NCBI GenBank assembly: GCA_045637825.1
Contig: JAZUAD010000021.1
Coordinates: forward strand, 84 to 64,083
DNA: 64,000 nucleotides
From: Candidatus Onthoplasma sp.
GTDB lineage: Bacteria > Bacillota > Clostridia > Christensenellales > UBA1242
Direction: 5' to 3'
The notes under the pieces were generated by a model. The model was not told where the DNA came from, ran no database searches, and saw nothing but the letters and a program-made list of their open reading frames with translations. The position numbers were made by a program, and so were the translations under genes. Numbering within the stretch: the stretch's first letter is position 1; each line of letters opens with the position of its first letter. Shown piece after piece: positions 6,624-45,701 of this stretch.

Positions 6624-6642
6624 AATTTAAAATGGAGAAAAT

Positions 6643-8802: not shown

Positions 8803-8899
8803 ATGATTATTGAATAAAAGAGAATATTTAACAAATAATATTTGTATGTTAGACTTATCTTAAAAGGTAAGTCTTTTTTATTGATAAAAGGGGAATACA

Positions 8900-9694: not shown

Positions 9695-9748
9695 ATTTTT
9701 GTTGTTTATTTGCTTTACAAATTTTTTCAAGTAAGCTATTATAGAACT

Positions 9749-10729: not shown

Positions 10730-10734
10730 ATATT

Positions 10735-11925: not shown

Positions 11926-11940
11926 TTAGAATACAAAAAG

Positions 11941-11978
11941 TGTCAAAAGTTATTGTTAAACTTTTGGCATTTTTTTTA
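11941..11978 (+). terminator. Intrinsic terminator after ackA
   Basis: 11-nt arms tgtcaaaagtt/aacttttggca followed by T8. Confidence 0.7.
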
Positions 11979-12217
11979 TATAAATAAAAAATTTTTACAC
12001 AGGTAGTTGACATTATATAATTTATTTGTTATATTATTAATGTGCAATAGCAGTATTTTTTTTGTGCTGTTGTATGTTTCAAAAATAAGCACCTGCAAAT
12101 ATTCATTGTCGGTTGCCCAATATTAATGCATATATGCTTGCTAAAAATTGCATTAATGCAAGGGTTGACGAGGGAGTTGACTTTGTGGGGAAGACTAAAA
12201 ACAAGGAGGAAAAATAA

Positions 12218-30905: not shown

Positions 30906-32774
30906 CAAAAAAGAGTATTTATATTGCTTCTAATGTTTATTGTGGTGTTTAGCGCAATATTTCTTAGGTTGGGTTATTTGCAGTTAGTTGCGGGCAAAGA
31001 ATTACAGGTTTTGGCTTCTAGTCAGTGGTTGCGAGATTTGCCCTTATCTGCAAAGCGTGGAGATATTGTAGACTGCAATGGTGTGTTACTGGCAACAACT
31101 GAAACCACCTACGACCTATATGTACGTGCTAGAAGTGTAGATAAGCCAACAGAGTTGGCACGCCTATTGGCAGATAAACTAAAATTAGATTTTGACAAAA
31201 CCTATACCAAAGTAACTAATACAAGAATATCGGAAAGTTTAATCAAACTGCAAGTAGCGGAAGATGTGGCGTTAAGTATTGCCAATTCCAATTTGAAAGG
31301 AATTTATTTATCACAAAATGTAGGGCGGGTTTATCCGTACTCTAACCTGCTTACACAAGTGTTAGGTTTTTGCTCAATAGATAATGTTGGTCAAACGGGC
31401 TTAGAGAGTTATTACAACAAGTATTTAAAAGGCGTAAATGGCAAAAGTTTAGTACAAACCAATGCGCAGGGATTAGAACTTGATAATAGTTTACAATATT
31501 ATATTCCAAGTATTGCAGGAGCAAATTTAACGACAACCATAGATGTTTCATTGCAAATAATTCTTGAAAAATATTTATATGAGGCCTATATTGAGCATAA
31601 GGCTAAGGGTGTAACAGGAATAATTTTAGATGCAACTAATGGAAATATTTTAGCAATGAGCAATATTCCAGATTTTGACCTAAACAATGTGCCAAGAGAA
31701 GACTTAAATGCACTATTTAGCATTAGCAAAAACAAGGCGGTGGTTGACGTATATGAACCCGGTAGTACCTTTAAAATTATTACAATGGCGGCAGCGCTGA
31801 ATGAGGGATTAACAAATGTTGAAGAAAGGTTTTATTGCGGAGGAAGTTGCAGTGTAGATGGCGAGCGAATAAAGTGTTGGCGAACAATTGGTCATGGCTC
31901 ACAAACGCTGGTAGAGGGCTTTAAAAATAGTTGCAACTGCGTGTTTGTGCAACTGGCTTTAAGACTAGGTGTAGATAAATTATATAAATATATGGATTTG
32001 TTTGGCGTTGGTCAAAAAACAGGGGTAGATATTTCTAGCGAAAGTTCAGGTATTGTAATGAATAAAGGGCTGGTTAAAAATGTTGACCTTGCACGTATTG
32101 GTTTTGGTCAATCGGTTGCAGTAACCTCTTTGCAATTAACTAATATTTTTGCGTTTATTACAAGTGGTAAATTGTATACACCACATTTGATTAATAGTAT
32201 TTATACTGATGATGTTAGCTTGTATAAATATACACCAACATCTAAAAGCACAACGCTAAAATCAAACACTGTAAATACTATTAATATGATGCTGGCAAAT
32301 AATATTAATGCCGACGGTAATTATAATTTTGTGGCGGGGTATGATGTTGGAGGTAAAACAGGTACGGCACAAAAGTTTGAAAATGGTGTTATAGCAATAG
32401 GTAAATATGTATCTAGTTTTATAGGTGTTTATCCTACTAGCAGTCCTAGATATATATTGTTTGTCAGTGTTGATGAACCCTCTAATGGCGTGTATTATGG
32501 CGGAATGGTTGCTAAACCGATAGGTCAAAAGATTTTTAGTCAAATGTTTAGCATTAAAAACATTGTTCCTGAGGATATTAGCCAATTAACAAATCAACCA
32601 AATATTGAAATGCCTGAATTGGTTGGCAAAACGATAGCAGATGCGTGCGCTAAACTAAGAAGTTTGGGCTTAAATTCAAATATTGATGGAAATGGCGGTT
32701 ACGTTATTAGTCAACTTCCACTTAGTGGAACAAGGTTATATCAAGATGAGGAAGTTTTATTAGTGACTAATTAG
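30867..32774 (+). CDS. Class B penicillin-binding protein (FtsI/PBP2B/SpoVD type) with a C-terminal PASTA domain
   Basis: Transpeptidase motifs STFK, SCN (SxN-type) and KTGT. N-terminal TM helix, and one PASTA-like module at the C-terminus. Confidence 0.9.
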   Translation: MSKLKRFYNLFSFQKRVFILLLMFIVVFSAIFLRLGYLQLVAGKELQVLASSQWLRDLPLSAKRGDIVDCNGVLLATTETTYDLYVRARSVDKPTELARLLADKLKLDFDKTYTKVTNTRISESLIKLQVAEDVALSIANSNLKGIYLSQNVGRVYPYSNLLTQVLGFCSIDNVGQTGLESYYNKYLKGVNGKSLVQTNAQGLELDNSLQYYIPSIAGANLTTTIDVSLQIILEKYLYEAYIEHKAKGVTGIILDATNGNILAMSNIPDFDLNNVPREDLNALFSISKNKAVVDVYEPGSTFKIITMAAALNEGLTNVEERFYCGGSCSVDGERIKCWRTIGHGSQTLVEGFKNSCNCVFVQLALRLGVDKLYKYMDLFGVGQKTGVDISSESSGIVMNKGLVKNVDLARIGFGQSVAVTSLQLTNIFAFITSGKLYTPHLINSIYTDDVSLYKYTPTSKSTTLKSNTVNTINMMLANNINADGNYNFVAGYDVGGKTGTAQKFENGVIAIGKYVSSFIGVYPTSSPRYILFVSVDEPSNGVYYGGMVAKPIGQKIFSQMFSIKNIVPEDISQLTNQPNIEMPELVGKTIADACAKLRSLGLNSNIDGNGGYVISQLPLSGTRLYQDEEVLLVTN

Positions 32775-32800
32775 TTATATAAAATAAAAAAGGAGATTAT

Positions 32801-34261
32801 ATGGATTTACAACAACTAGTACAAGATTTTAAATTTAATGGGATTAAAAATTATAAGAATGTAGATATACAAAATTTAACAAATTCTAGTACGCAAAACA
32901 CAAATCAAGCGCTATATTTTTGCCTAAAAGGTAGCAAAGTTGATGGACACGAATATGCTAAGGAGGCGATGGATGATGGCGCAGTTTGTTTGGTGGTAGA
33001 GAAATATTTGGATTTACCTATAACTCAAATATTGGTTGACAATGCTAGAAGTGCAATGTCAGCCCTTAGTGCTAAGTTTTATGAGTTTGACAAATCTAAA
33101 ATAAAGTTTATAGGAGTTACAGGAACTAACGGAAAAACCACCACCGCTTTTATTACTAGGCACATTCTTAAAAATTTAGGCAAACGTGTAGGAATGATAG
33201 GCACTGAGGGTACCTATATGGGGGATATTAAAATACCTTCAGCTCTTACAACTCCAGACCCTATTAATTTACATAAAATCATACACGAAATGGATTTAAA
33301 CGGTATTGAATATGTGGTTATGGAAGTGTCGGCACACGCTATTGCATTAAACAAAATTGATAGCATTATGTACGATGTGGTAGGAATTACTAATATTACT
33401 CAAGACCATCTTGACTATTTTAATACTATGGAAAATTATGCAAGGGCAAAAGCTGAATTGTTTACATATAAACACGCACAAAAAGCCATAATAAATATCG
33501 ATGACAAATATACTAGGGCGGTATTAAAAAAATGCGATATTGAACATTCTACGTTATCTTTAAATAGACCTGCTGATATTAGTTTAGAACAAAGTGATTT
33601 AAAGCCAGATTCAACGCAAGCAATCATAACCATTAATAACAAGCAATATATGTTAAATAGTTCATTGGTTGGTGAATATAATCTTGCTAATACTCTTATG
33701 GCTATAGGGTTTTGCAATGTTCTGGGCTTTGAAGTTAGTAATATTTTACAGGCGCTTAATAGTTCGCAGTTGATAGTTCCAGGACGATTAAATTTAGTAA
33801 AAACACCTAAAAACAATACGGTTGTTATTGACTATGCTCACACGCCTGATGGGATTGAAAAAGTGTTGACTACCATCAACCAAATCAAAACAGGTAAATT
33901 AATAGTGGTGTTTGGCTGTGGTGGCGGTAGAGATAGCAGTAAACGAGCCTTAATGGGTGACATCGCTACAAAACTTGGAGATTATGTAGTTATAACTAGC
34001 GATAATCCAAGAAATGAAAATCCTTATCAAATTATTGCAGATATTAATAAAGGAACAGCTAATAGAAAAAATTGTGTAAATATTGCAGATAGAACAAGTG
34101 CTATTAATTATGCTTTGGCTATATCAAATGAGGGAGATATAATAGCAATATTGGGTAAGGGTAATGAAGCATATCAAGAGATTAAGGGAACAAAATATCC
34201 GTTTAGCGATTATCAGGCGGTAGATAATTATTTTAATAACAAACAAGAATATATTAAATAG
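32801..34261 (+). CDS. murE: UDP-N-acetylmuramoyl-L-alanyl-D-glutamate--2,6-diaminopimelate ligase
   Basis: P-loop GVTGTNGKTT, and DNPRNE (the DNPR motif typical of meso-DAP-adding MurE). Confidence 0.93.
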   Translation: MDLQQLVQDFKFNGIKNYKNVDIQNLTNSSTQNTNQALYFCLKGSKVDGHEYAKEAMDDGAVCLVVEKYLDLPITQILVDNARSAMSALSAKFYEFDKSKIKFIGVTGTNGKTTTAFITRHILKNLGKRVGMIGTEGTYMGDIKIPSALTTPDPINLHKIIHEMDLNGIEYVVMEVSAHAIALNKIDSIMYDVVGITNITQDHLDYFNTMENYARAKAELFTYKHAQKAIINIDDKYTRAVLKKCDIEHSTLSLNRPADISLEQSDLKPDSTQAIITINNKQYMLNSSLVGEYNLANTLMAIGFCNVLGFEVSNILQALNSSQLIVPGRLNLVKTPKNNTVVIDYAHTPDGIEKVLTTINQIKTGKLIVVFGCGGGRDSSKRALMGDIATKLGDYVVITSDNPRNENPYQIIADINKGTANRKNCVNIADRTSAINYALAISNEGDIIAILGKGNEAYQEIKGTKYPFSDYQAVDNYFNNKQEYIK

Positions 34262-34285
34262 TTAACATATTAAAAGGAAATAAGT

Positions 34286-35293
34286 ATGATAAAAATTATT
34301 GTGGGCTTTATACTAAGTTTTATTTTAGGCATTGTTTTAATGCCTTTGATAATTAAGATTATACGAAAATTTAGTTGCTCACAAACTATTTTGGAATATG
34401 TAGAGGAACACAAATCCAAACAAGGTACGCCAACAATGGGTGGGGTAGTATTTTTCATATCAACCCTACTAATAGTGGTGTGCCTGATGGATTATAGCAC
34501 CGAACTAGCAATGGCTTTGGGGGTTGGACTGGCCTTTGCTATAATTGGATTTATGGACGATTTTATCAAGGTAAAGTTTAAACAGAATTTAGGTCTTAGA
34601 CCGTATCAAAAAATTATTGGACAAGTAGGTGTTGCGTTAATACTTGCCGTATACATATATTTTTGGTCACCTAATAAGGGGATAATATATTTGCCCTTTA
34701 CCTTTAAAGCAATAGATTTAGGAATATGGATAATTCCTTTAGTTATAATAGTTTGTTTAGGTGCAACTAATAGCGTAAACTTAACTGATGGGTTAGATGG
34801 CTTGGCTGGTGGTGTAAGTGTAATATATAGCGGAATATTTATTGCTTTGATTACAATTTTTTCAACTCTTGCCTTTAAAAATGGCGAATTGGATAGTTTT
34901 GTAACTATGTATAAGGATATGGCACTACTGCTTGCAATTTTTATGGGTAGCATCATAGCTTTTTTGATATTTAATACTAATAAGGCAAGTATATTTATGG
35001 GAGATGTAGGTTCTCTTGGTATTGGAGGACTATTTGCCTCCAGTGCTTGTATAATGGGTTTTGAATTTATGCTTGCAATAGTGGGCGTTATGTTTGTAGT
35101 ATCGGCCTTGTCAGTAATACTGCAAGTATTGTATTTCAAAAAAACAAAAGGTAAACGTATATTTAAAATGGCTCCACTTCATCATCACTTTCAAATGTGT
35201 AGGCATAGTGAGGCAAAAATAGGTTATATTTACCAAACAATAACACTAATGATAGGACTTGTTGTAATTCTTTTAACTTTGCTTTTTATCTAA
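34286..35293 (+). CDS. mraY: Phospho-N-acetylmuramoyl-pentapeptide transferase
   Basis: Motifs KxGTPTMGG, NSVNLTDGLDGLA, MGDVGSLGIGG, PLHHHF. Confidence 0.95.
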   Translation: MIKIIVGFILSFILGIVLMPLIIKIIRKFSCSQTILEYVEEHKSKQGTPTMGGVVFFISTLLIVVCLMDYSTELAMALGVGLAFAIIGFMDDFIKVKFKQNLGLRPYQKIIGQVGVALILAVYIYFWSPNKGIIYLPFTFKAIDLGIWIIPLVIIVCLGATNSVNLTDGLDGLAGGVSVIYSGIFIALITIFSTLAFKNGELDSFVTMYKDMALLLAIFMGSIIAFLIFNTNKASIFMGDVGSLGIGGLFASSACIMGFEFMLAIVGVMFVVSALSVILQVLYFKKTKGKRIFKMAPLHHHFQMCRHSEAKIGYIYQTITLMIGLVVILLTLLFI

Positions 35294-35331
35294 AAGTTAT
35301 AATTGCTAATTAATTTTAATATATATATTTT

Positions 35332-36432
35332 ATGATTAAGTCCTACAAAAATTCAATTATAATAGTAGTTTGTACAATAGTTTTGGTTAGCGTAGGGGTG
35401 ATTATGGTGTATAGTGCCAGTAAATACTCTGCCAACCTTAATTATGGTAATAAATATTTTTATATGACCAAGCAGTTGGTTGGTGCAGTGTTAGGATTAG
35501 GTGGTATGATTGCTACATCATTAATCAACCATAAGATATATAAAAAGTTTTATATATTAGCATATATAATAGGACTGGTTTTATTGTCGTTATTGTTTAT
35601 TCCAGGACTTGCCAAGACGAGTTATGGGGCAACTAGATGGATAAATTTGGGCTTTTTTACTATTCAACCTAGTGAAATTGCAAAGTTTTGCTTAGTATTG
35701 TTTTTAAGTGTGGCATTGACTAGAGGTAAAGATATTAATAAACCTAGTAAATTATTAGGGATAATATTTGCTGGAGTATTATATTGCGTACTTATTATGC
35801 TTGAGCCAAATATGTCAATTACAATATGTGTAGGACTTACATTGGTGGTAATGCTATTTATTGGCGGGCTTAATATTAAAACCTTTGCAATAGGGACTAT
35901 ACCGATTATTTTATTAGGTGTGGGGCTTGTAATGTTGGAGCCATATCGTATGAAGCGAATAATTGCCTTTATTGACCCCTGGCAAAATCCACTAGAGGAG
36001 GGTTATCAATTAATTCAATCTTTATATGCAATATCCAGTGGAGGATTGTTTGGTGTGGGGCTAGGTAACAGCCGTCAAGCACAATTATTTTTGCCTTTTG
36101 CTGAAAGTGATTTTATATTTTCCATAATTTGTGAAGAACTTGGCTTTATAGGTGGAGGAGCAATACTTTTAACTTATTTAATATTAATAATAACAATAAT
36201 TAAAGTAGGAATTAAGGCAAAAGATAATTATTCCAAGTTTCTGTGTATAGGTATTGCTTGTGTTTTAGGAATTCAAACAATGCTCAACATCTGTGTTGTC
36301 TCTGGCTCAATTCCGCCAACAGGCCTGCCACTTCCGTTCATTTCCGCAGGGTCAACAAGTTTGCTAGTTTTTATGAGTGCGATCGGGGTGGTTTTAAATG
36401 TTGATAAACAATCTAGAAAAGGTGTAATTTAA
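35332..36432 (+). CDS. ftsW: SEDS-family peptidoglycan glycosyltransferase FtsW/SpoVE
   Basis: 10-TM SEDS protein with RWINLGFFTIQPSE, ESDFIFS and the C-terminal PPTGLPLPFISAGSTS motif. Confidence 0.9.
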   Translation: MIKSYKNSIIIVVCTIVLVSVGVIMVYSASKYSANLNYGNKYFYMTKQLVGAVLGLGGMIATSLINHKIYKKFYILAYIIGLVLLSLLFIPGLAKTSYGATRWINLGFFTIQPSEIAKFCLVLFLSVALTRGKDINKPSKLLGIIFAGVLYCVLIMLEPNMSITICVGLTLVVMLFIGGLNIKTFAIGTIPIILLGVGLVMLEPYRMKRIIAFIDPWQNPLEEGYQLIQSLYAISSGGLFGVGLGNSRQAQLFLPFAESDFIFSIICEELGFIGGGAILLTYLILIITIIKVGIKAKDNYSKFLCIGIACVLGIQTMLNICVVSGSIPPTGLPLPFISAGSTSLLVFMSAIGVVLNVDKQSRKGVI

Positions 36433-36446
36433 AAATTTTATTTAAG

Positions 36447-36493
36447 AATGTATGCAAATTGCAATCAAGGTGTATACATTTTTATTTTTTTGT
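36447..36493 (+). terminator. Intrinsic terminator after ftsW (cassette module, copy 0)
   Basis: 10-bp stem aatgtatgca/tgtatacatt (one G-U pair), 14-nt loop, then TTTTTATTTTTTT. Confidence 0.65.
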
Positions 36494-36501
36494 GTTATAC
36501 T
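36493..36501 (+). promoter_or_regulatory. Extended -10 promoter (TGTTATACT) for the first HD cargo gene
   Basis: TGn + TATACT directly after the terminator T-run and ~24 nt before the ATG. The same arrangement recurs in all four units. Confidence 0.45.
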
Positions 36502-36524
36502 TGTTTTTAACAAGGAGATTTTCA

Positions 36525-37190
36525 ATGAAACAAGTTGAAGAAATTATAAATAAATTAAGAAATAAAGTTGAAGAATATTTTAGCAAAGATGCTAGTGGAC
36601 ATAATATAGACCATTTAGAAAGAACATTAAAATATGCTTTATATTTACAATCTAAAGAAGGTGGAGATATTATTGTTGTGGCTACATCTGCTTTTATTCA
36701 TGACATACATAGAATTTTGGGCGCTGAACAAAATAAGTTTGTTTCGCCAAAAGAAAGTTTACCTGTTGTTGAACAGTTTTTAGATGAAATTGAATTAACA
36801 CCAAAACAAAGAGAACATATATTATTTGCTATTGAACACCATGAAGAATATTCTTTTGGTGAAGGTGGTGTTAATGTTCAAGATATTGAAAGTAAAATTT
36901 TACAAGATGCAGATAATTTAGATGCGATTGGTGCAGTTGGGATTGTTAGAACTTTCAAATATGGAATGGCTCATAATGTAGTTGATTATGACCCAAGCGT
37001 TCCTTTATATCAAAATGAATATAACGAGAGTAAAGAAGATGCATCAACAATTCATCATATCAATAATAAACTTTTAAGATTGGGTGAACACATGAACACT
37101 AAAACTGCTAAAAGGTTGGCAAAAGAAAAAATAAAATTAATGAAAGATTTTATGGATATGTATATTGAAGAAGTTGTTGGAAAGGTTTAA
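36525..37190 (+). CDS. HD-domain phosphohydrolase, YpgQ/YedJ-like (putative (d)NTP pyrophosphohydrolase); cassette cargo 1
   Basis: Motifs SGHNIDHLERT ... AFIHDIHR ... HHEE ... LQDADNLDAIGA (H..H, HD, D pattern). RBS aaggaga lies before the ATG at 36525. The upstream part of the listed ORF (from 36459) overlaps the terminator and promoter. Confidence 0.75.
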   Translation: MKQVEEIINKLRNKVEEYFSKDASGHNIDHLERTLKYALYLQSKEGGDIIVVATSAFIHDIHRILGAEQNKFVSPKESLPVVEQFLDEIELTPKQREHILFAIEHHEEYSFGEGGVNVQDIESKILQDADNLDAIGAVGIVRTFKYGMAHNVVDYDPSVPLYQNEYNESKEDASTIHHINNKLLRLGEHMNTKTAKRLAKEKIKLMKDFMDMYIEEVVGKV

Positions 37191-37213
37191 TTTTTAATAA
37201 AGTATTTATAATA

Positions 37214-37360
37214 CAATAACTCGTGTTAAGAGGCTCAATCCCGCCAACAGGGTTGCCGTTGCCATTTATATCTGCCGGCTCAACAAGTTTGCTTGTTTTT
37301 ATGAGTGCGATTGGTGTGGTGCTGAATGTGGATAGGCAATCACGGGAGAATAAACTTTAA
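37214..37360 (+). pseudogene. Displaced ftsW 3'-end fragment, copy 1 (43 codons, intact frame, no start codon)
   Basis: 37232-37360 translates to GSIPPTGLPLPFISAGSTSLLVFMSAIGVVLNVDRQSRENKL*. The first 38 codons match the FtsW C-terminus with one conservative change and 19 synonymous codon differences. A TAA lies 4 codons upstream. Confidence 0.85.
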
Positions 37361-37370
37361 TTTTTTAGTA

Positions 37371-37417
37371 AAAATGTATACAATTTGTAATGAAAAAGTA
37401 GACATTTTTATTTTTTT
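37371..37417 (+). terminator. Hairpin terminator of cassette module, copy 1
   Basis: Arms aaaatgtatac/gtagacatttt (1 mismatch), then TTTTTATTTTTTT. Homologous to the ftsW terminator. Confidence 0.55.
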
Positions 37418-37418
37418 G

Positions 37419-37427
37419 TGTTATAAT
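37419..37427 (+). promoter_or_regulatory. Extended -10 promoter TGTTATAAT for cargo 2
   Basis: TGnTATAAT directly after the T-run. RBS aggaga downstream. Confidence 0.5.
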
Positions 37428-37449
37428 GTAAGCACAGGAGAAGAATGAT

Positions 37450-37686
37450 ATGGGATTTTTTGATATTTTTAAAAAGAAGAAAGAAGAGTGGTATAAGCAA
37501 AAAGAAACAGATATTATTTGGTGGTTAGATAATAGCGATAAAATTGGAGAGCATGTGTTTAGTTTTGATAAGAAAAAAAAGTTTAATTTGTTTAGAGATT
37601 ATCCTTATCAATTAACTGCTGAGCAAAAAGAAATATTTGATAAAGAAAATCCGTATTGGGCAGATTTTTTTAAAGATAGAAAATAA
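37450..37686 (+). CDS. Hypothetical 78-aa protein (Trp/Lys-rich, no TM helix); cassette cargo 2
   Basis: ORF with RBS aggaga 8 nt upstream and its own promoter module. I recognise no family. Confidence 0.5.
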   Translation: MGFFDIFKKKKEEWYKQKETDIIWWLDNSDKIGEHVFSFDKKKKFNLFRDYPYQLTAEQKEIFDKENPYWADFFKDRK

Positions 37687-37732
37687 TGTAAAGAGCAATA
37701 ATTTTGCTTTTTTTATTAAAAATTTTATAATT

Positions 37733-37975
37733 CAATAACTGATGTTAAGAGGATCAATTCCACCAACAGGATTACCCGCGTCAAAACTCTCGTTTATTTT
37801 GCTTGTGCGCGCAGTTGCTTGCACATTCGCTTAACACTCGGTTTTTCCTTTCCACTTCAAAGCTTTCGCTTTGTGGGGTCCCCAAAAGTCTGCCGGATCA
37901 ACAAGTTTGCTGGTTTTCATATTTGCTATCGGAGTTGTTTTTAATATAAATAGGAAGAGCAAGAAAAACAATTAA
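37733..37975 (+). pseudogene. Displaced ftsW 3'-end fragment, copy 2, interrupted by a 111-bp insertion
   Basis: GSIPPTGLP (37751-37777), then the insertion, then SAGSTSLLVFIFAIGVVFNINRKSKKNN* (37889-37975). The four codons for LPFI are missing. Confidence 0.8.
37778..37888. other. 111-bp GC-richer insertion of unknown nature inside fragment copy 2
   Basis: About 47% G+C by manual count, against an AT-rich background. The (-) strand folds as CCAC-AAAGC-GAAA-GCUUU-GAA-GUGG (GNRA-capped hairpin). Contains the GGGGTCCCC palindrome. Confidence 0.4.
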
Positions 37976-38013
37976 ATTTTTTGAATAAGTGTATACACTT
38001 TTTGTTTTGTATA

Positions 38014-38022
38014 TGTTATAAT
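38014..38022 (+). promoter_or_regulatory. Extended -10 promoter TGTTATAAT for cargo 3
   Basis: Follows the short hairpin aagtg-tata-cactt plus T-run (37987-38008). RBS agaggg precedes the ATG at 38045. Confidence 0.5.
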
Positions 38023-38044
38023 AAAATTGTTAGAGGGCATTGTT

Positions 38045-38764
38045 ATGAGCATAAAAAACGAAAGAGAAGAAAAAATTCTTCAAATATCAGTTAGAAAAAA
38101 GTTTAGTTATAAAGATATTTTAAAAAGCAATTATTATAAAGAAACATATACTAAAATCGAAGAGCTTAAGAAAGATTTTTATGTTAACCATGGCTTTATT
38201 CATATTAAGAATGTAACTAATAATGCTGAATATTTAGCAGATCTTTTTTGCCTTGATTCAAGACAGAAAGAATTGTTACTTATAGCAAGTGTGTTGCATG
38301 ATATTGGTTATCTAAAAGGGAGAGAAAACCATGACGTAAATGGCAGTGTATTGGCTTATGAATATCTTAAAAATCTAATGCCTAAAGAAGATGTTGATTT
38401 AATTTGCAGTGCAATAGCAAGTCATGGTGGCAAAAATGATGAAGATTATATTAACCCTATTTCAATGTGTTTGATTTTAGCAGACAAATTGGATTTTACT
38501 AAAGATAGATATAAAGATGATGGAAAAGAACATGTTAATCTACCATTGTTTTTAAGTATAGAAAAAATTATGTTAACAAAAGATGATATAAATAATTTTA
38601 CACTTAAAATTTACACTACAAGCAAGCCTCTATTCGATAATTTAGATGACAATTATTATTTTAAAAAACTCTTTGAGGTTTTAAGAAAATTAAAAAATAT
38701 TTGCAATTATGATGTTAAAATTAATTTTATTGATTGCAAAAAAGATTTTGAATGCAATAGCTGA
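38045..38764 (+). CDS. HD-domain phosphohydrolase unrelated to cargo 1; cassette cargo 3
   Basis: Motifs HGFIHIKNV ... LHDIGY ... NHDVNGS ... ASHGG ... ILADKLDF. The ATG at 38045 follows RBS agaggg. Confidence 0.7.
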   Translation: MSIKNEREEKILQISVRKKFSYKDILKSNYYKETYTKIEELKKDFYVNHGFIHIKNVTNNAEYLADLFCLDSRQKELLLIASVLHDIGYLKGRENHDVNGSVLAYEYLKNLMPKEDVDLICSAIASHGGKNDEDYINPISMCLILADKLDFTKDRYKDDGKEHVNLPLFLSIEKIMLTKDDINNFTLKIYTTSKPLFDNLDDNYYFKKLFEVLRKLKNICNYDVKINFIDCKKDFECNS

Positions 38765-38893
38765 TGGGTGGTCCAATCGACAGGATTACTATTGACCTTC
38801 ATTAGTGTTGGCTCAACAAGTTTGCTAGTATTTATGAGTGTAATAGGGGTTGTACTAAATGTTGATAGACAAAGTAGGAAAAGTAAGATTTAA
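38755..38893 (+). pseudogene. Displaced ftsW 3'-end fragment, copy 3 (most degenerate; overlaps the stop of cargo 3)
   Basis: Encodes VVQSTGLLLTFISVGSTSLLVFMSVIGVVLNVDRQSRKSKI*, against native VVSGSIPPTGLPLPFISAGSTS... It has a ~4-codon deletion and several replacements. Confidence 0.7.
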
Positions 38894-38904
38894 AAAATGT
38901 AAAC

Positions 38905-38937
38905 AAAATGTATGCGTATTGTATACATTTTTTTGTT
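38905..38937 (+). terminator. Hairpin terminator of cassette module, copy 3
   Basis: Arms aaaatgtatgc/gtatacatttt (one G-U pair), 5-nt loop, T-run. Confidence 0.55.
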
Positions 38938-38941
38938 TATA

Positions 38942-38950
38942 TGATATAAT
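38942..38950 (+). promoter_or_regulatory. Extended -10 promoter TGATATAAT upstream of the dual-HEPN gene
   Basis: TGnTATAAT directly after the T-run. A second TGTATAAT lies near 39026. Confidence 0.4.
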
Positions 38951-39056
38951 ATAAATTATTAATAATTAATTATTACATTTTTATAAAATAATGATTATTA
39001 ATATAAGCTATATAACTTTTGGTGTTGTATAATATTTATGTGATGGAGATTATTTT

Positions 39057-40589
39057 ATGGATGCAAACAAACTATTAGAAATTGCAGATAAAACTAAAAT
39101 GTTTGTTAAAGAATTAAACAATGCAAACAAAAAAATTGAGTTATTTAATACTCAAGAATATATGAATGAAATAATGCAATATAAAACCTATGAAGCAAGA
39201 AGTTCTTTTTTAAAAAGGGCTTTGAGAAAAGTATATAAAGAAGTATATAATGTTGTACATAATTTTACAAAACAGGACTCGATAGAAGTATTGTTGCCAT
39301 TATCGCTAAATTGCTACAATCAAGATTGGGATTATGTTACCAAGGCAATACAAGATAGATATAATGATCCTAATGATTTTATACATAGCATAACTAATGG
39401 AGATGGAGAGAACAGGTCAATTGAAGATATAATACAAGTAAAAAGTTGGGGACATATTCGTCCTAAATATGATGTAAATTTTTTTATAAAAGTAAGAAAT
39501 GGTTTGTCACACTCCAAGTTTGATTATGATGAAGAAAACAACAAGTTAATTATTAATATGTATCAAGGAACGTTTGTTGTTGAGTTTGATATGTACTTTA
39601 TGCACTGGTTTCCTATTAATATATGGCGAATGAGCGAACAATCGTCTTCGATAAATTCGGAACAAAGACTCTTGTTAATCAATAACTTACCTTGCAAAAC
39701 TGCTTATTCAGTATTAGTAAAAAATACTAATAGAGAATTAACCAATGCAATAAAAAGGAAATTTAGAAATGCGGGTGTTAATGCCTCGCTTAAACAATAT
39801 ATAGAAAATATTAAAACAACGTTAGATGCAGACCCAAATATAACTTTAGTAGATAAGATAGAGATATTGACTCCACTTTTATCGGTTGATGATATGTCAA
39901 AAGAATTAACTGAAAGTCAAGCAGATGCCATAGTTACGATATTTGAATATTTGGGCTTGACTGTAGAAGAGAACCAAAAGGTTGAATTATATCAACTGCT
40001 AGGAAAAGATAACGTATTATTAACTTTTTTATTAAACGATATGATGGTATCTAAAGAGATTGCTGAAGATGATAAGCGCATTATGTTATCTAGAGGAGTT
40101 GCAACCAAAATAGATAAGCAAAGCAAAAATATTAGACCATATCAATATTTATTTGGATTAATGACATTATGTGAAGATGTAAGTGAAAGTAAATTTAATT
40201 CTAACATAAAGCAATCTCCAATCCCTTATATTATGGACGAGCTTTGTACATTTGCAGATATTGCTTATTTTAATTATGTATTTAATTATTTGGCACAAAA
40301 ACTAGAACAACCTCAAGAATTAGCATCACTACCAGCTACCGATTATTTTAAAGAAAATAGTTATACAAGTGGCAAAAGTATATCTGATACATTTTACTAT
40401 ATAAGGAATTGTGTTGTACATCCTAATAGAGTAATAAAGGTTAAAGATGTGTATATACTAACAGATTATGAACGAGATGGATCTTTAGTTTTTTCTGCTG
40501 AAATTGAGTGTGATAAGTTTTTTGAACTTGCTAATTTAGTTGTTTTCAAAATGAAGGAACATAACATAACTTTAAACAACACAAATTAA
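39057..40589 (+). CDS. 510-aa protein with two RNxxxH (Rx4H, HEPN-type) motifs; candidate single-chain dual-HEPN RNase
   Basis: R147-N-G-L-S-H152 (nt 39495-39512) and R450-N-C-V-V-H455 (nt 40404-40421). Each motif sits at the end of a predicted helical stretch and is followed by a similar beta-like segment. RBS ggaga. No signal peptide or TM helix. Confidence 0.55.
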   Translation: MDANKLLEIADKTKMFVKELNNANKKIELFNTQEYMNEIMQYKTYEARSSFLKRALRKVYKEVYNVVHNFTKQDSIEVLLPLSLNCYNQDWDYVTKAIQDRYNDPNDFIHSITNGDGENRSIEDIIQVKSWGHIRPKYDVNFFIKVRNGLSHSKFDYDEENNKLIINMYQGTFVVEFDMYFMHWFPINIWRMSEQSSSINSEQRLLLINNLPCKTAYSVLVKNTNRELTNAIKRKFRNAGVNASLKQYIENIKTTLDADPNITLVDKIEILTPLLSVDDMSKELTESQADAIVTIFEYLGLTVEENQKVELYQLLGKDNVLLTFLLNDMMVSKEIAEDDKRIMLSRGVATKIDKQSKNIRPYQYLFGLMTLCEDVSESKFNSNIKQSPIPYIMDELCTFADIAYFNYVFNYLAQKLEQPQELASLPATDYFKENSYTSGKSISDTFYYIRNCVVHPNRVIKVKDVYILTDYERDGSLVFSAEIECDKFFELANLVVFKMKEHNITLNNTN

Positions 40590-40632
40590 TAATGACTTTA
40601 ACGTAAAAAGTAAATGTATCATATACTAGATT

Positions 40633-41895
40633 ATGAATACATATAATGATAAATTTATAATAGTTGGTGGTAACGAACTTGAGGGTGAGGTTATTATCCA
40701 AACCAGTAAAAACGCAGTTTTACCTATACTGGCGGGCAGTATACTCTGTGATAAACCAATGGTTATTAAAAATGTACCTAACCTATTAGATGTAAGTAAT
40801 ATGTTTGCTATTTTACGCAATCTTGGAGTAAAGCTGGATTATTTTAATAAAGACTGCTATATAGATGCAAGTAATATAAACAGTACTATGCTTAATCAAG
40901 AATTATGTAAAACATTGCGTTCATCAATATTTTTGCTAGGTCCTTTATTAGCAAGGTTTAAAAAGGCAATTATTTCTTATCCCGGAGGGTGTGATATTGG
41001 TAATAGGCCTATAGATTTACATTTAGGAGGGCTACAAAAACTAGGAGTTAAAATAACCAATCGACATAGTCTTATATATTGCGATGCTAAAGATATGAAA
41101 AGTGGGGTAGTTCAATTAGATTTTCCGAGTGTTGGTGCTACTGAAAATCTTATGATGAGTGCGGTGTTTTTAAATGGAACTACACGTCTTATTAATGTTG
41201 CCAAAGAACCAGAGATAGTTGACCTGCAAAATTTTTTAAATAGTATGGGGGCAGATATTTCAGGCGCTGGCTCCTCAGAGATTACTATTAATGGTGTAAA
41301 TACTTTACATACTACACAATATACGCCAATAAGCGATAGAATTGTAGAAGGAACGCTTATGCTTGCTACTGCAATTTGTGGTGGAAGGGTTTGTTTAAAA
41401 AACACAAATTTTAAAAATAATCAAAGTTTAATTGCAAAACTTTCGTCAGTTGGTTGCCAAATAGATACTAAAAATGATATAATACATATAACTTCAAAGG
41501 GACGGCTTCCATCTATTGATTTGATAGACACTCAAGTATATCCAGGATTTCCTACAGATTTGCAGGCCCAAATGATGGCTCTTCAAACGGTTAGTGAAGG
41601 TGTTAGTGTTATGTGCGAAAATGTGTTTGAAAATCGTTATAAGCACGCTAAAGAGTTGATTAAAATGGGTTCAGATATAATTCTTCGTGACCGGGTGGCT
41701 GTTGTTAAGGGTGTGAGTGAACTTGCAGGTGCTCCTGTAGATGCTAGCGATTTACGTGCTGGTGCGGGCTTGGTGCTAGCGGGCTTAAAAGCAAAAGGTT
41801 ACACCACAATCAATAATATCTATCATATTGATAGGGGTTATGAAAACTTTGAAAATATATTAACAAGTTTAGGTGCAGATATTAAAAGATTATGA
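40633..41895 (+). CDS. murA: UDP-N-acetylglucosamine 1-carboxyvinyltransferase
   Basis: N-terminus FIIVGGNELEGEV, and active-site Cys in YPGGCDIGNRPIDLH. Confidence 0.93.
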   Translation: MNTYNDKFIIVGGNELEGEVIIQTSKNAVLPILAGSILCDKPMVIKNVPNLLDVSNMFAILRNLGVKLDYFNKDCYIDASNINSTMLNQELCKTLRSSIFLLGPLLARFKKAIISYPGGCDIGNRPIDLHLGGLQKLGVKITNRHSLIYCDAKDMKSGVVQLDFPSVGATENLMMSAVFLNGTTRLINVAKEPEIVDLQNFLNSMGADISGAGSSEITINGVNTLHTTQYTPISDRIVEGTLMLATAICGGRVCLKNTNFKNNQSLIAKLSSVGCQIDTKNDIIHITSKGRLPSIDLIDTQVYPGFPTDLQAQMMALQTVSEGVSVMCENVFENRYKHAKELIKMGSDIILRDRVAVVKGVSELAGAPVDASDLRAGAGLVLAGLKAKGYTTINNIYHIDRGYENFENILTSLGADIKRL

Positions 41896-42773
41896 CTAAG
41901 CGAGCAGTTATTATCATCACTAGTATATTGGTGGCAATAGTTACAGTTTTAACCATATTATTGGGGTTTGTTTTTCGTGTGCGCAAAATTGAACTATTGT
42001 ATGACCAAGACTTTTGCTATATAGGCGAAGTAGATATGGTTAAAGAAAGTGGTAAATTAAAGAAAAATACTAGCATTTTTGCAGTTGAACGTGATATTAT
42101 TAAAAATAATATTGAAAAAGCATATCCTTATGCTCGTGTAAGGATTAATATTTCTAGTATGACTAGCGTTAAAATTACTCTTTCGAATCGTGAGCCATTG
42201 TATTATATTGCACACGAAATTTCACACGAAATAGTTTATTATATTTTAGATGAAGATTGTAAAATTTTGGAAATTACAACTGATGAAAATAAGGCAACGC
42301 AATATATATTGCTAGATGATGTGTTTAGCGTAACTGAGCAAACTGAGGTTGGCGAATTTTTGGATAATAAATATACTGAGGTTTGCACAAGTTTATATAA
42401 GGCATTATATTCAAATGCTGTATTAAATATTGGTGAAGATAGCGATAGTGATGGGTTTGCTGATGAAAAATATTTAGAACGACAAGATATGTATGAGATT
42501 ATCCAAAGCGTTAAATTTGTTCCAGAAAATGAACTAGGTGGCAAAAAAGACAAGTTGGTTATTAATACTGATGCTAGTAATGGATATGGAGTAAAACTAA
42601 CTATAATTGAACCACAAAAAGATTTGGATAATAAAATAAATAGGGCATTTTCGGCAATGCGCACTTTAATAAACTTGGGTGAGCAAGATAAATATACTAC
42701 AGGTTCAATTAATGTTGATTATGATTATGATAGTGATGGAAAAATAGTTTTAGTGTGCAATTATAGCAAATAA
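41892..42773 (+). CDS. ftsQ: Bitopic membrane protein in the FtsQ/DivIB position
   Basis: N-terminal TM helix, POTRA-like segment (VRKIELLYDQDF...). Start overlaps the murA stop (ATGA). Synteny with ftsA-ftsZ. Confidence 0.5.
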   Translation: MTKRAVIIITSILVAIVTVLTILLGFVFRVRKIELLYDQDFCYIGEVDMVKESGKLKKNTSIFAVERDIIKNNIEKAYPYARVRINISSMTSVKITLSNREPLYYIAHEISHEIVYYILDEDCKILEITTDENKATQYILLDDVFSVTEQTEVGEFLDNKYTEVCTSLYKALYSNAVLNIGEDSDSDGFADEKYLERQDMYEIIQSVKFVPENELGGKKDKLVINTDASNGYGVKLTIIEPQKDLDNKINRAFSAMRTLINLGEQDKYTTGSINVDYDYDSDGKIVLVCNYSK

Positions 42774-42907
42774 TTGTTAAAAAACAGTAAAAATATAACA
42801 AAATTTACTTAAATAACTTAAAAAAATATATAAAAAAGGCAAAAAGTGTTTGACTTGCCTTTTTTAAATGATATATAATATATTATATATTACTTAGGAA
42901 GGAAGTT

Positions 42908-44017
42908 ATGAAGAATTTAACATATGTGCTAGACATTGGTTCTTCTAAAATTAGTTTGCTTGCTTGCAATGTAAATAAAAAGAAATCGCTTATAGTTACT
43001 AGCATCAATCACGAATATGATGGGTTTATGGACGGTGAGTTTTTTTCGACTGACCAGGTAAAAGTAGTTATTGGCGAATTGCTTACCGAAATGAGGGACA
43101 GAATTAATAAACCTATAAATAGCGTTTATATCGGCGTTCCTAGTGAATTTAGTGCGTGTGTATGCAAAAGGGTTACTCGAAATTTTGTTCCTGCACAAAA
43201 ACTTGATGAAAACACGTTAAAAGAAATGTTTGATGGCGTTAATGAATTTGGGCAAAAGGATAATTACGTTGTAACAAGCTTTAGTCCATTGCAATATGAG
43301 TTGGACGGGGCGGTAGTTAGTACTTTAACCAATAAGCGTGTAAGTCAATTTGTTATGGACTGTAGTTATATTCTAGTAAAAAAACAATTTATTGAACTTA
43401 TGCAACAAATATTTAATGACTACAATATAAAGGATGTAGATTTTGTGTCTACAGCGTTAGCGCAAGCGCAATTTGTAAGACAACAAGTGGACACCGACTT
43501 GCAACCAATAATTGTTGTAGATATTGGTCATATTACTACCAGCGTAGCGGTAAGTAAGGGCGAGGGGTTGATGATGCTTAGTTCGTTTTCATTAGGCGGT
43601 GGGCATATTACGGCTGACCTAATGCAAGTAAATAACCTAAATTATTGGGAAGCGGAAAAAATTAAACGTAAAGTTTGCTTGACTATCCAAAGTAAGAAAG
43701 ATGATAAATATATTGTTTACGATAAAAATGGCAAAAAGTTAAAGGCAATAATTAATATTACAAATGATATTGTTAAAGCAAGAATTGAAAATATTGCTGA
43801 AGTGTTAAACCGAGTGTTAAATTTTAACAAAGCATTTAATAATCTTCCAATATATTTAACGGGCGACGGGATATGTAATTTTAGGGGAGTGGTAAATATA
43901 TTTGAGGCAGTGTGCAATAGAAAAATACATATTTTAAAAAGTCCTTTGTATAACGGAGAGGATAAATATCAAACTTCAAAAATTAGTTTGGCAAATATTA
44001 TAGGGGATTTAGTATAG
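42908..44017 (+). CDS. ftsA: Cell division protein FtsA (actin-like ATPase), short form without an obvious C-terminal amphipathic helix
   Basis: Motifs LDIGSSKISL, VVDIGHITTSV, GGGHITADL. Immediately upstream of ftsZ. Confidence 0.75.
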   Translation: MKNLTYVLDIGSSKISLLACNVNKKKSLIVTSINHEYDGFMDGEFFSTDQVKVVIGELLTEMRDRINKPINSVYIGVPSEFSACVCKRVTRNFVPAQKLDENTLKEMFDGVNEFGQKDNYVVTSFSPLQYELDGAVVSTLTNKRVSQFVMDCSYILVKKQFIELMQQIFNDYNIKDVDFVSTALAQAQFVRQQVDTDLQPIIVVDIGHITTSVAVSKGEGLMMLSSFSLGGGHITADLMQVNNLNYWEAEKIKRKVCLTIQSKKDDKYIVYDKNGKKLKAIINITNDIVKARIENIAEVLNRVLNFNKAFNNLPIYLTGDGICNFRGVVNIFEAVCNRKIHILKSPLYNGEDKYQTSKISLANIIGDLV

Positions 44018-44026
44018 GAGGTAAAA

Positions 44027-45464: not shown

Positions 45465-45540
45465 GATCCATTAGCTCAGTTGGTAGAGCACATGACTTTT
45501 AATCATGGTGTCCCGGGTTCAAGTCCCGGATGGGTCACCA
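45465..45540 (+). tRNA. tRNA-Lys (anticodon UUU), CCA encoded
   Basis: Manual cloverleaf: acceptor gatccat/atgggtc (one G-U pair), anticodon stem catga/tcatg, loop cTTTTaa, T-loop ttcaagt. Confidence 0.9.
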
Positions 45541-45543
45541 AAT

Positions 45544-45626
45544 GCGGATGTGGCGAAATTGGCAGACGCGCTAGACTTAGGATCTAGTGGGCGACCGTGG
45601 GGGTTCAAGTCCCTTCATCCGCACCA
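45544..45626 (+). tRNA. tRNA-Leu (anticodon UAG), long variable arm, CCA encoded
   Basis: Acceptor gcggatg/catccgc, anticodon stem ctaga/tctag, loop ctTAGga. Confidence 0.9.
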
Positions 45627-45701
45627 AGGGGTATCGCCAAGCGGTAAGGCACAAGACTTTGACTCTTGCACGCGGTAGTTCGAATCTACCTACCCCTGCC
45701 A
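45627..45701 (+). tRNA. tRNA-Gln (anticodon UUG), CCA encoded
   Basis: Acceptor aggggta/tacccct, anticodon stem caaga/tcttg, loop ctTTGac, T-loop ttcgaat. Terminator hairpin ataagc../gcttat plus a T-run follows. Confidence 0.88.

Follow-up and report, generated by a model that had tools for sequence, protein, structure and literature searches.

What looks like an integron-like collection of foreign genes at the 3′ end of ftsW in Candidatus Onthoplasma

Introduction

How does the end of an essential gene come to stand four times in one gene cluster, each time in front of a different gene? The question is raised by a stretch of 64,000 nucleotides (nt) from Candidatus Onthoplasma sp. (Bacillota; Clostridia; Christensenellales; UBA1242), positions 84 to 64,083 of contig JAZUAD010000021.1 in GenBank assembly GCA_045637825.1, hereafter called the window. 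In it, ftsW (35332–36432), encoding a SEDS glycosyltransferase of 366 amino acids (aa; PF01098, E = 8e-95), is separated from murA by a row of small units that combine copies of the ftsW end with unrelated genes. A first-pass annotation of this DNA, made from its letters alone, had proposed that cassettes without a recombinase of their own were inserted here one after another. Comparison with related loci, which come from metagenome-assembled genomes (MAGs) or metagenome contigs only, leads us to a similar picture, in which the locus looks like an undescribed, integron-like means of gathering foreign genes where an essential gene ends; a literature search found no description of such a locus type. 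We give a probability of roughly one half to the reading that small, self-expressed cassettes, aimed at the ftsW 3′ end, accrete into an array through host homologous recombination. All features of the window given below lie on its forward strand.

Repeated ftsW Ends Between ftsW and murA

The functional end of ftsW, comprising its last 42 codons and the stop codon (129 nt, 36304–36432; copy 1, found as the self-match in blastn and tblastn), recurs three times further downstream, in agreement with the four occurrences first reported. As a blastn query against the 64-kb window it matches copy 2 at 37232–37341 (81%, E = 3e-25), copy 4 at 38810–38893 (81%, E = 4e-18) and two pieces of copy 3 at 37889–37945 (79%, E = 6e-9) and 37751–37770 (90%, E = 0.02), with all remaining matches at E ≥ 0.9. 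A tblastn search of the window with FtsW finds the displaced ends at E = 2.6e-18, 4.3e-12 and 3.4e-7, and both a repeat search and a MAFFT alignment are concordant with blastn on the four copies. Copy 2 (37232–37360) keeps its frame up to the stop and has an in-frame GTG 9 nt upstream; copy 3 (37751–37975) is split at 37779–37886 by an insert of ~108 nt resembling a miniature inverted-repeat transposable element (MITE), and its 3′ half bears many non-synonymous changes in alignment and translation; copy 4 (38769–38893) has decayed over its first ~45 nt, where an in-frame stop occurs, and is well conserved over the 84 nt at 38810–38893.

The array ends 43 nt before murA (40633–41895; PF00275), at a conserved promoter region (40598–40632; TTAACG-18-TATACT, then 5 nt and the ATG) that is common to relatives in which murA directly follows ftsW, and which thereby marks its right border. 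Cargo genes and ends stand at n:n, the last cassette having no end behind it, presumably through loss by deletion. GC content is 0.24–0.31 within the array and 0.31–0.38 in the flanking core genes (window positions 32000–45000).

The ftsW-murA Site in Relatives

Scanning GTDB species, one genome each, with FtsW as guide yielded 80 loci (numbered with L). Nearly all stem from MAGs under the labels Candidatus Onthoplasma, Christensenellales or "Clostridia bacterium"; in the protein collection, the species of the window appears a single time. Among the 62 loci holding both genes, the gap between ftsW and murA measures 42–135 nt in 30 and 210–346 nt in five, and in the other 27 it is filled with 0.6–7.9 kb of unrelated cargo. 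Since ftsW stands next to murA in 30 of the 62, the ancestral state is ftsW directly before murA. With a profile built from the four window copies, 17 of the 80 loci are seen to hold one to five displaced ftsW ends, and further metagenome contigs hold others; a separate metagenome scan by junction pattern returned five contigs, and public protein collections contain at least 129 distinct "FtsW family" mini-proteins of 35–78 aa, which are displaced ends called as genes. Thus the interval is one of variable content between two conserved syntenic core genes, as in a flexible island, and the turnover of cassettes that had been anticipated is seen between species in their presence or absence, order and content, and in one junction expected of a circle or a duplication (see below); the arrangement is not invariant.

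Behind the last displaced end of L006, L083 and L142 come a native-type intergenic region and murA, as expected of an insertion that displaces the resident end. The cleanest single insertion, seen in L142–L150, reads ftsW, an APH-family kinase, the junction motif described below, a displaced end, the native intergenic region and murA.

Cargo without any displaced end also occurs between ftsW and murA (L002, L019, L059, L074, L131). In the more distant L131 (positions 4167–12031; GCA_045650505.1) nine genes lie in the interval, including Imm33, a homologue of the last cargo protein of the window, an HD protein and an ABC transporter, with no displaced ends and no junction motifs in the interval, so the hotspot is older or wider than the end-replacing cassettes. 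In the closest MurA relatives (90%), L092 (1–223) and L093 (1–196), two independent assemblies, contigs break ~200 nt upstream of murA, at the position of the array, which is consistent with strain heterogeneity or with repeats disrupting assembly.

Displaced Ends as Working or Recently Working ftsW Ends

Judged by their codons, the displaced ends work as ftsW ends or did so until recently. Between copy 2 and the native end of the window there are 17 synonymous codon differences and one non-synonymous over 36 conserved codons, and pairs of displaced ends within one genome give synonymous to non-synonymous counts of 11:0, 13:0 and 4:1. Of the codon differences counted over all pairs, a fraction of 0.213 is non-synonymous for displaced ends and 0.245 for functional ends. 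Because the displaced ends differ almost only synonymously, duplication in place followed by neutral decay or divergence is ruled out. Disrupted copies, whether truncated, frameshifted or split by the MITE-like element, make up 15 of 36.

The ends are also shared between distant hosts. From a particular GG dinucleotide onward, L047 and L003 are 93% identical over 114 nt, as against 62% in the preceding 120 nt, and L006 and L008 90% over 114 nt as against 58%; L054 shows 0.77–0.86 from GG and 0.46–0.55 upstream of it when compared with several hosts. Functional ends can therefore be 90–93% identical at the nucleotide level between hosts whose ftsW bodies are 57–70% identical, and sliding identity among the closest relatives puts synonymous sites at ~50% even at 90% FtsW identity. 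Furthermore, with hosts at equal FtsW divergence, the ends of occupied loci are nearer to the pool of displaced ends than the ends of empty loci are (0.685 vs. 0.657, p = 0.0015), and for many displaced ends the functional end of the same genome is much more distant than copies from elsewhere (in L030, 0.57 to its own and 0.80 elsewhere). A universal gene conversion from each genome's own first copy was considered as well and does not hold, only six of 27 displaced ends being closest to it. The first cargo of the window, HD1, recurs together with its promoter module in L051 at 93% aa identity (tblastn) and 88–96% nt identity, with an FtsW only 63% identical; in this pair, the only shared cargo recent enough for the comparison, the downstream flanking end is the best match of all (0.83, rank 1) and the upstream end reaches 0.80.

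Almost exclusively synonymous differences and ends shared between distant hosts lead to the conclusion that ends were horizontally replaced and the old ones pushed downstream. We consider it highly probable that a replacement ftsW end arrives with each cassette and shifts the earlier one downstream, as the first-pass annotation had supposed: the 17:1 codon ratio, the 93% against 62% in shared ends, the native flank in L006, L083 and L142 and the polymorphism between species all speak for it.

The Junction Motif

All displaced ends with a complete 5′ side start at the same GG, which belongs to the Gly324 codon of the motif GSIPPTGLPLPF. Immediately before nearly all of them stands a sequence of 28 nt, TTTATARTRCAATAACTSRTGTTAASR, which we call the P-arm; it is atypical or degenerate in L025, L032, L053 and copy 4 of the window. 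In the window, P-arm 1 (TTTATAATACAATAACTCGTGTTAAGA, 37204–37231) lies directly 5′ of copy 2 and P-arm 2 (TTTATAATTCAATAACTGATGTTAAGA, 37723–37750) directly before copy 3. The P-arm is followed by a GGYTCAAT-like ftsW start in 39 of 39 unique instances, 32 of them exact and seven near-variants. It has the look of an ftsW derivative, but it differs from native ftsW at that position and is 12 nt shorter; read in the ftsW frame it contains a TAA, and most copies have an ATG or GTG located 9 nt ahead of GG.

Mean pairwise identity among 23 displaced ends from different genomes is 0.33 in the 30 nt upstream of the motif and 0.73 in the motif itself, and 0.77, 0.87 and 0.465 at codon positions 1, 2 and 3 of the fragment, which places the P-arm under a constraint that ends sharply at GG. 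Within the first 17 nt of the fragment the third positions of TCA and CCA are unusually conserved. The P-arm is kept where the rest of the fragment has been truncated or filled with small insertions; L051 and L047 tolerate the loss of 1 nt between start codon and GG. When folded as a consensus, the P-arm region showed no conserved structure on either strand (RNAalifold, −0.5 and −0.1 kcal/mol) and no dyad symmetry.

Terminator and Promoter Modules

Promoters, terminators and mini-ORFs (open reading frames) described here are predictions from sequence, obtained by folding and promoter scans. Module 1 (36443–36518) consists of a hairpin at 36443–36484 with a T-run, a −35 box TATACA at 36473–36478, a TG-extended −10 box TATACT at 36496–36501 and a ribosome binding site (RBS) AAGGAG at 36512–36517. 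Module 2 (37367–37441) has the hairpin at 37367–37412, TAGACA at 37399–37404, a TG-extended TATAAT at 37422–37427 and the RBS AGGAGA at 37436–37441. In module 4 (38897–39049) the hairpin spans 38897–38942, with TATACA at 38922–38927 and a TG-extended TATAAT at 38945–38950, and an AT-rich leader holding a second TGtTATAAT (39028–39033) leads to the RBS at 39045–39049. The hairpins predicted after copies 1, 2 and 4 reach −15.6, −9.8 and −15.4 kcal/mol, each with a T-run, and in all three the right arm of the hairpin is the −35-like TATACA or TAGACA, 17 nt upstream of the TG-extended −10. Module 3 (37987–38037) holds only a single palindrome of 14 nt, AAGTGTATACACTT (37987–38000), which folds weakly (−4.3 kcal/mol), before TGtTATAAT (−10 box at 38017–38022) and an RBS at 38032–38037, so that the terminator and promoter originally seen after every copy stand as described for three copies, and for copy 3 shrink to this short palindrome in front of the promoter.

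Neither the module motif nor the junction motif occurs elsewhere in the 64-kb window. Where the site is empty in relatives, ftsW ends in another terminator, without the AATGTATAC...GTATACATT hairpin, and since the module is absent from empty ftsW-murA sites it belongs to the inserted DNA and is not the native terminator of ftsW. Indeed, module 1 is co-inherited with HD1 in L051, and the cassette-borne module recurs before most cargo genes, including those of arrays without ftsW fragments. Each cassette would thus have its own TG-extended −10 promoter and RBS, with no shared promoter of the Pc type in the design.

A terminator sequence behind cargo genes, AAAGAGCAATAAnTTTGCTCTTTTTT, recurs upstream of the junction motif behind unrelated cargos (window 37689–37715; L047 at ~4870; L054 at ~13480 and ~15950; several times in L122). 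Because of this recurrence, the conserved 3′ end of the cassette may be longer than the 28-nt motif in one subfamily.

Cargo Genes

The four genes of the window are different from one another, as had been stated from the sequence and is now borne out by Pfam, PDB and sequence comparisons. Cargo 1 (HD1, 36525–37190) encodes an HD-domain hydrolase of 221 aa (PF01966; PDB 3djb, 1.7e-33, and 5dqv, 1e-18) whose similarity to YpgQ-family structures spans residues ~5–217, and which is accordingly predicted to be an HD pyrophosphohydrolase of the YpgQ type. Cargo 2 (37450–37686) is a DUF7675 protein of 78 aa (PF24723, E = 8e-34) with a predicted terminator of its own at ~37689–37715 (−7.8 kcal/mol). 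Cargo 3 (HD2, 38045–38764), a second and unrelated HD-domain protein of 239 aa (PF01966, E = 3e-9), has a weak PADLOC match to Cas3-HD (3e-6) and relatives at 42–49% identity in L057 and L061; a degenerate P-arm at 38744–38768 encloses its final codons and the TGA stop.

Cargo 4 (P510, 39057–40589) is a protein of 510 aa with two invariant RNxxxH motifs, R147–H152 and R450–H455, and with no match in Pfam, PADLOC or PDB. Only four homologues were found in 5.8e9 proteins, one of which (P0243) likewise lies in an ftsW-murA island; HD2 is unrelated to the HD protein beside the P510 homologue. Relatives of P510 score 22.7 bits against the HEPN family pEK499_p136 (PF18736), below the gathering score of 26.6, and a Foldseek search of its AF2 structure model (pLDDT 64) against PDB gave no match with E < 1; it is possibly HEPN-like. 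Exact-protein look-ups of the window proteins returned no match, the HD1 query being uninformative as it started one codon early (36522).

BLASTP clustering of the 206 ORFs of at least 50 aa in 47 occupied intervals leaves 132 as singletons. Pfam assigns the 97 larger cargo proteins most often to GNAT acetyltransferases (10) and S-adenosylmethionine (SAM) methyltransferases (4), followed by S41 peptidases, HD proteins, cytidine deaminases, HAD proteins, decarboxylases, ASCH proteins, alpha/beta hydrolases and HIT proteins, with single examples of a fucosidase, a CotH kinase, a 5′-nucleotidase, an M20 peptidase, a transporter and an APH-family kinase. The suggestion that the cargo serves defence is not upheld, since PADLOC matches are few, weak or rare, and a defence-island reading was rejected on that ground; the cargo resembles that of chromosomal integrons more than that of a defence island. 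Units of 0.5–1.7 kb share a uniform design of terminator, promoter, RBS, gene and P-arm; that each cassette holds a single gene is true of the window, but in some relatives a cassette carries several.

Cargo of the APH family (PF01636), which includes aminoglycoside kinases, is found at L142:7116–7961 and L024:15179–16030; it is possible that it represents a resistance gene borne by the cassette system.

Small Elements Inside the ftsW Ends

The MITE-like element that splits copy 3 is a sequence of ~100–108 nt with a conserved CCCC-ACAAAGC...GCTTTG-GGGG hairpin, found only inside ftsW ends, at two positions and in a fixed orientation at each. Besides the window (37779–37886), copies lie at L001:8360–8469, L018:12249 onward, L030:6406–6505 and 8328–8433, L032:11745–11842, L046:7120–7225, L047:5008–5107, L051:5549–5648, and L142:6869–6968 and 8130–8228. 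In L046, L051 and L142 the element sits in the functional ftsW, where it supplies a new C-terminal tail (…NVDRHSWGPHKTNVLKGKGKTEQ and stop) and is followed by a duplicated ftsW segment starting from ATGAGTGC. Such MITE-associated end duplications use junctions other than GG, at profile position 68 and in the tail. An Rfam scan of 36000–41000 on both strands found no family, nor was one found for the element itself. Small non-coding insertions flanked by duplications of other parts of the ftsW end occur too: in L122 (1–14138; JGI 3300031555) boundary fragments are filled with small repeats, each flanked by copies of the ftsW tail AGAAAAAGTAAA, at 672–1095, 2027–2365, 5212–5690, 6244–6552 and 8822–9158. 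It seems that several non-coding mobile sequences nest in the ftsW end.

Recombinase Searches and Array Dynamics

The first reading of the DNA had seen no recombinase in cis, and the search now extends this to the block, the window and ~150 related loci (~1.5 Mb). Pfam searches of the 97 cargo proteins and of the ten largest ORFs, and a search of PHROGs, returned no recombinase; phmmer with E. coli XerD and Tn3 resolvase as probes (limited sensitivity) gave no match among 1,936 ORFs of at least 100 aa from 85 loci and the window. Nor did the 97 cargo proteins or the 1,936 ORFs of 85 loci include integrase, excisionase, relaxase or replication genes, and viral contigs of IMG/VR held neither the ftsW-end nor the junction pattern. 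No transfer RNA (tRNA) gene lies in the array, the nearest being at 45465–45701. Across 32–45 kb the GC skew is positive and the cumulative skew rises monotonically, with nearly all window genes co-oriented; because of this monotonic course, a location at dif or the replication terminus was rejected.

One population varies in its array. The contigs concerned, L122–L130, come from JGI samples 3300018475, 3300022661 and 3300031555. L122 holds four GNAT genes in an array that spans no less than 14 kb, and in two other samples (L127 and L130) the end of a 2.35-kb block, holding a GNAT gene, a displaced end, a serine hydrolase, an 85-aa ORF and DUF2262, is joined back to the start of the block. The hybrid junction passes from the right-hand to the left-hand boundary repeat within a stretch of ~60 identical nt in two repeats of 240 nt that are 90% identical, and would be expected of either an excised circle or a tandem duplication. 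L126 offers a third context for the same GNAT cassette, matching L054. Elsewhere the site is uniform: besides three species with constant arrays (see below), one species has a fixed empty site and another a fixed single-gene insertion.

How the Cassettes May Insert

A cassette would comprise a replacement for the last 42 codons of ftsW, an intrinsic terminator whose right arm also serves as the −35 box of a strong TG-extended promoter, an RBS, one or several cargo genes and the 28-nt P-arm. In a Campbell-type insertion, its ftsW-end segment would recombine with the chromosomal ftsW end, so that the incoming copy completes ftsW and the old end, now prefixed by the P-arm, moves downstream with everything behind it. 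Repeated insertion would then build a stack with the newest cassette next to ftsW. The general homologous-recombination machinery of the host, and not a cassette-encoded enzyme, would act on the ~130 nt (up to ~300 nt) of conserved end, and afterwards the same repeats could give rise to excision, duplication and gene conversion; an intermediate that is circular, or else linear with flanking repeats, dependence on RecA and a route of transfer between cells are parts that we infer. Heteroduplex reaching to the edge of the cassette-borne homology, followed by block repair, would be expected to leave a sharp boundary at GG.

The data show the anatomy of the array, the horizontal replacement of functional ends, displaced native ends beside murA, no recombinases and, in one natural population, a junction mediated by repeats; it is as to the crossover that opinions may differ. 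Five observations favour homologous recombination: the L127/L130 crossover within repeats; the two copies of L142, whose identity is 80% in the first 30 nt, ~98% in the central ~210 nt including the MITE-like element and ~55% in the last 45 nt, a profile that would fit a heteroduplex or conversion tract; the copies of L025 and L032 (96% and 91% identical), whose limits coincide with the edges of homology; the native first copies of L030 and L058, which keep AGT/AGC for serine where the displaced ends use TCA, so that the crossover is not always at GG; and the insertions with other junctions. On these grounds we lean towards a crossover that is homologous rather than site-specific. Several points weigh on the other side. 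The ends are only 70–82% identical, with perfect runs of at most ~20 nt, a poor substrate for RecA and a worse one between species. Plain homologous recombination does not explain why the P-arm stands at 0.73 against 0.33–0.47 at adjacent neutral sites with an abrupt drop at GG; the left boundary of replaced functional ends falls within ~15 nt of GG in all pairs examined; and GGYTCAAT is found in 12 of 17 first copies of arrays and in 10 of 29 empty sites (p = 0.03). Moreover, in each of three species the array does not differ between samples, which makes turnover slow on the timescale of strains; no circle was seen directly, and the L127/L130 junction could equally be a tandem duplication or conceivably a metagenome mis-join; and the evidence comes from MAGs and metagenome contigs.

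Most of these points can be turned in favour of a site-specific recombinase acting in trans, encoded elsewhere or on a helper element, which would recognise the P-arm together with a GGYTCAATYCCNCCAAC core and cross over at the Gly324 codon, leaving to homologous recombination only a later reshuffling, much as an integron integrase can serve arrays without an integrase of their own (CALINs) or Xer serves recombinase-less elements at dif (IMEX). The junction is invariant, with 39 of 39 P-arms from at least 17 species-level genomes; the P-arm is more conserved than its neutral flanks (0.73 vs. 0.33–0.47) and the conservation breaks off at GG; TCA and CCA keep their third positions in the first 17 nt; the P-arm and the first ~30 nt outlive the loss of the remaining fragment; and the ~15-nt limit on the start of replaced ends, the enrichment of GGYTCAAT in occupied sites (p = 0.03) and the low identity of the ends (70–82%) agree with such an enzyme. 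Yet none was found in ~150 loci and ~1.5 Mb, native ftsW is free to vary synonymously across the putative attB, the first copies of L030 and L058 lack the core, MITE-associated end duplications use profile position 68 and the tail, and the junction observed in a population lies in the tail region and not at GG. The P-arm has neither a conserved hairpin nor dyad symmetry, the locus lies off the replication terminus and the resemblance to dif is weak: against the XerD arms of known dif sequences, which may differ from that of the host, 7–8 of 11 nt match in one arm only. We regard such a recombinase as possible, if rather doubtful. That the units are instead decayed remnants of integrase-bearing integrative and conjugative elements (ICEs), integrative and mobilizable elements (IMEs) or prophages at the ftsW 3′ end, accreted site-specifically as cis-mobilizable elements (CIMEs), as at fda, rpsI and tRNA genes in streptococci or in the tycheposon remnants of Prochlorococcus, would agree with the 15 of 36 displaced ends that are truncated or disrupted; it strikes us as very improbable in view of the lack of integrase, excisionase, relaxase and replication genes among 97 cargo proteins and 1,936 ORFs of 85 loci, of the uniform design of the 0.5–1.7-kb units, which is unlike remnants left by random deletion, and of the absence of ftsW-end copies from IMG/VR viral contigs.

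The remaining two explanations concern what the displaced ends are. They could be selected small genes, compatible with either mode of insertion, for which the P-arm would provide the −10-like box and, 9 nt ahead of GG, the start codon (ATG or GTG), and which would encode a peptide of ~45 aa holding the last transmembrane helix of FtsW; this would account for the conservation of the P-arm. In 13 of 21 intact displaced ends an in-frame start at −9 (CTGATG or CTCGTG) is indeed present, gene callers predict such genes (the at least 129 mini-proteins of 35–78 aa mentioned above), the signature of purifying selection (0.213) is as strong as among functional ends, and in L122 a TGATG overlaps the stop of the upstream cargo with the start. 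However, the 15 of 36 copies that are truncated, frameshifted or split by the MITE-like element, the eight of 21 intact ones without a start codon, the lack of a Shine-Dalgarno sequence, a −10-like box degraded to CATAGT or TTAGTG in many copies, the 1-nt deletions tolerated between start codon and GG in L051 and L047, and a window in which copy 2 alone is translatable make a role as genes unlikely. Alternatively, the interval may be an ordinary flexible island, exchanged by homologous recombination in ftsW and murA, in which the repeated ends are incidental and go back to one ancestral duplication that has since spread. Many relatives with cargo and no displaced end (L002, L019, L059, L074, L131) agree with this, as does the 12-nt shortening relative to ftsW that all typical P-arms share, which suggests their common descent. 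Up to five displaced ends per locus, with deep synonymous divergence and foreign affinities (L030, 0.57 to its own and 0.80 elsewhere), functional ends replaced from GG onward independently of the ftsW body, and a cassette module that recurs before most cargos even in fragment-free arrays render it quite improbable.

Tentatively, we may imagine a gene-capture platform of the Christensenellales, equivalent in function to the integron but of another construction, in which the 28-nt arm would direct self-promoted cassettes to the final 42 codons of ftsW and a host-encoded activity would insert them, either a new trans-acting recombinase or a homeologous recombination tolerating 20% divergence, with the C-terminal segment of ftsW continually swapped between species as a side effect. 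It would then be a second, independent solution to the task of integrons, the collection and expression of single foreign genes at a fixed, safe address, found where integrons are essentially absent, namely in gut Bacillota with reduced genomes. Part of the coding sequence of an essential gene can, on this account, circulate horizontally on a mobile cassette. The cassettes form a reservoir of accessory enzymes in uncultured gut bacteria, among them GNATs, an APH-family kinase and nucleotide hydrolases; their simple design of homology arm, terminator, promoter, gene and junction arm could serve as a targeting tool for genetically intractable organisms, and the P-arm is a 28-nt handle for tracing the enzyme, if one exists.

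Gene Order Around the Array

Some features of the neighbouring core genes deserve mention. The −10 box of murA lies only 5–8 nt before the start (TATACT-AGATT-ATG) in the window (40598–40635) and in the empty sites of L005, L013, L020, L036 and L041, a spacing which suggests that murA mRNA may be leaderless or near-leaderless in the clade. In the lineage of the window mraY leads directly to ftsW with a gap of 39 nt (34286–36432), whereas relatives at 60–66% FtsW identity have murD between the two (compared: L009, L104, L131, L142). In the division and cell-wall cluster of the window, murG and murC are not between ftsW and murA.

Comparison with Known Systems

Integrons and the clusters of attC sites lacking an integron integrase (CALINs) are built from promoterless cassettes under a common promoter Pc, bounded by attC sites that are imperfect palindromes folding as single strands, with the integrase gene intI beside attI in the complete form; Bacillota rarely have them. 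The array resembles them in its many small, mostly single-gene cassettes of great diversity and largely unknown or accessory function, GNATs being prominent, in polar growth at one end and in cassette stop codons that often lie inside the boundary element. It differs in having no IntI, attI or attC, in a boundary formed by the copy of a host gene end and the P-arm, and in a promoter and terminator for each cassette.

Modules that exploit XerCD (IMEX and pdif modules) use dif-like sites of 28 bp at the replication terminus or on plasmids. They too are small, recombinase-less units with repeated boundary sites, inserted by a host enzyme and capable of forming tandem arrays, but the present site lies within the division and cell-wall cluster on a monotonic slope of GC skew and resembles dif only weakly. 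Staphylococcal cassette chromosome (SCC) elements, including SCCmec and pseudo-SCC islands, stand at rlmH (orfX) of staphylococci as large units with repeats of 15–20 nt, at least some of which carry the Ccr recombinases. The ssrA islands of Dehalococcoides depend on ssrA-specific serine recombinases (PMC3146451). In both, as in the array, units have been inserted one after another where a conserved gene ends, direct repeats of that 3′ end separate them, and some have no recombinase; unlike the array, they are recombinase-dependent, with 15–20-nt repeats and large units.

Tycheposon islands of Prochlorococcus are 10–20 kb in size, target tRNA genes and carry tyrosine or serine recombinases and often replication modules (bioRxiv 10.1101/2020.12.28.424599). 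In them, as here, repeated integration at one site pushes older elements outward and leaves partial copies of the target scattered, in streamlined genomes with few classical transfer systems; here, however, the target is ftsW, and the array contains no tRNA or transfer-messenger RNA gene and no recombinase. A precedent of matching logic is the tandem accretion of ICEs, IMEs and CIMEs at the 3′ ends of protein genes, such as ICESt1 and its CIME at fda of Streptococcus thermophilus (PMC5704250). There too the 3′ end of a housekeeping gene is the target, the incoming element restores it, units are flanked by direct repeats that include it, which is how CIMEs are recognized and what the array displays, units without recombination genes persist, and newer units stack beside the gene. 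Those elements, unlike the present ones, owe their insertion to element-encoded integrases and measure several kb to tens of kb with short att repeats; in the ~150 loci from GTDB genomes and metagenomes, and in IMG/VR, we found no integrase and no integrase-bearing element using the same att site, and the units are single-gene expression cassettes of 0.5–1.7 kb with a coding repeat of 129 nt and a non-coding arm of 28 nt. What sets the ftsW array apart from all the systems compared is the lack of an integrase anywhere in the loci searched, the uniform, self-promoted, single-gene design, the pairing of a 129-nt coding repeat from an essential gene with a 28-nt arm, and a functional gene end that itself circulates.

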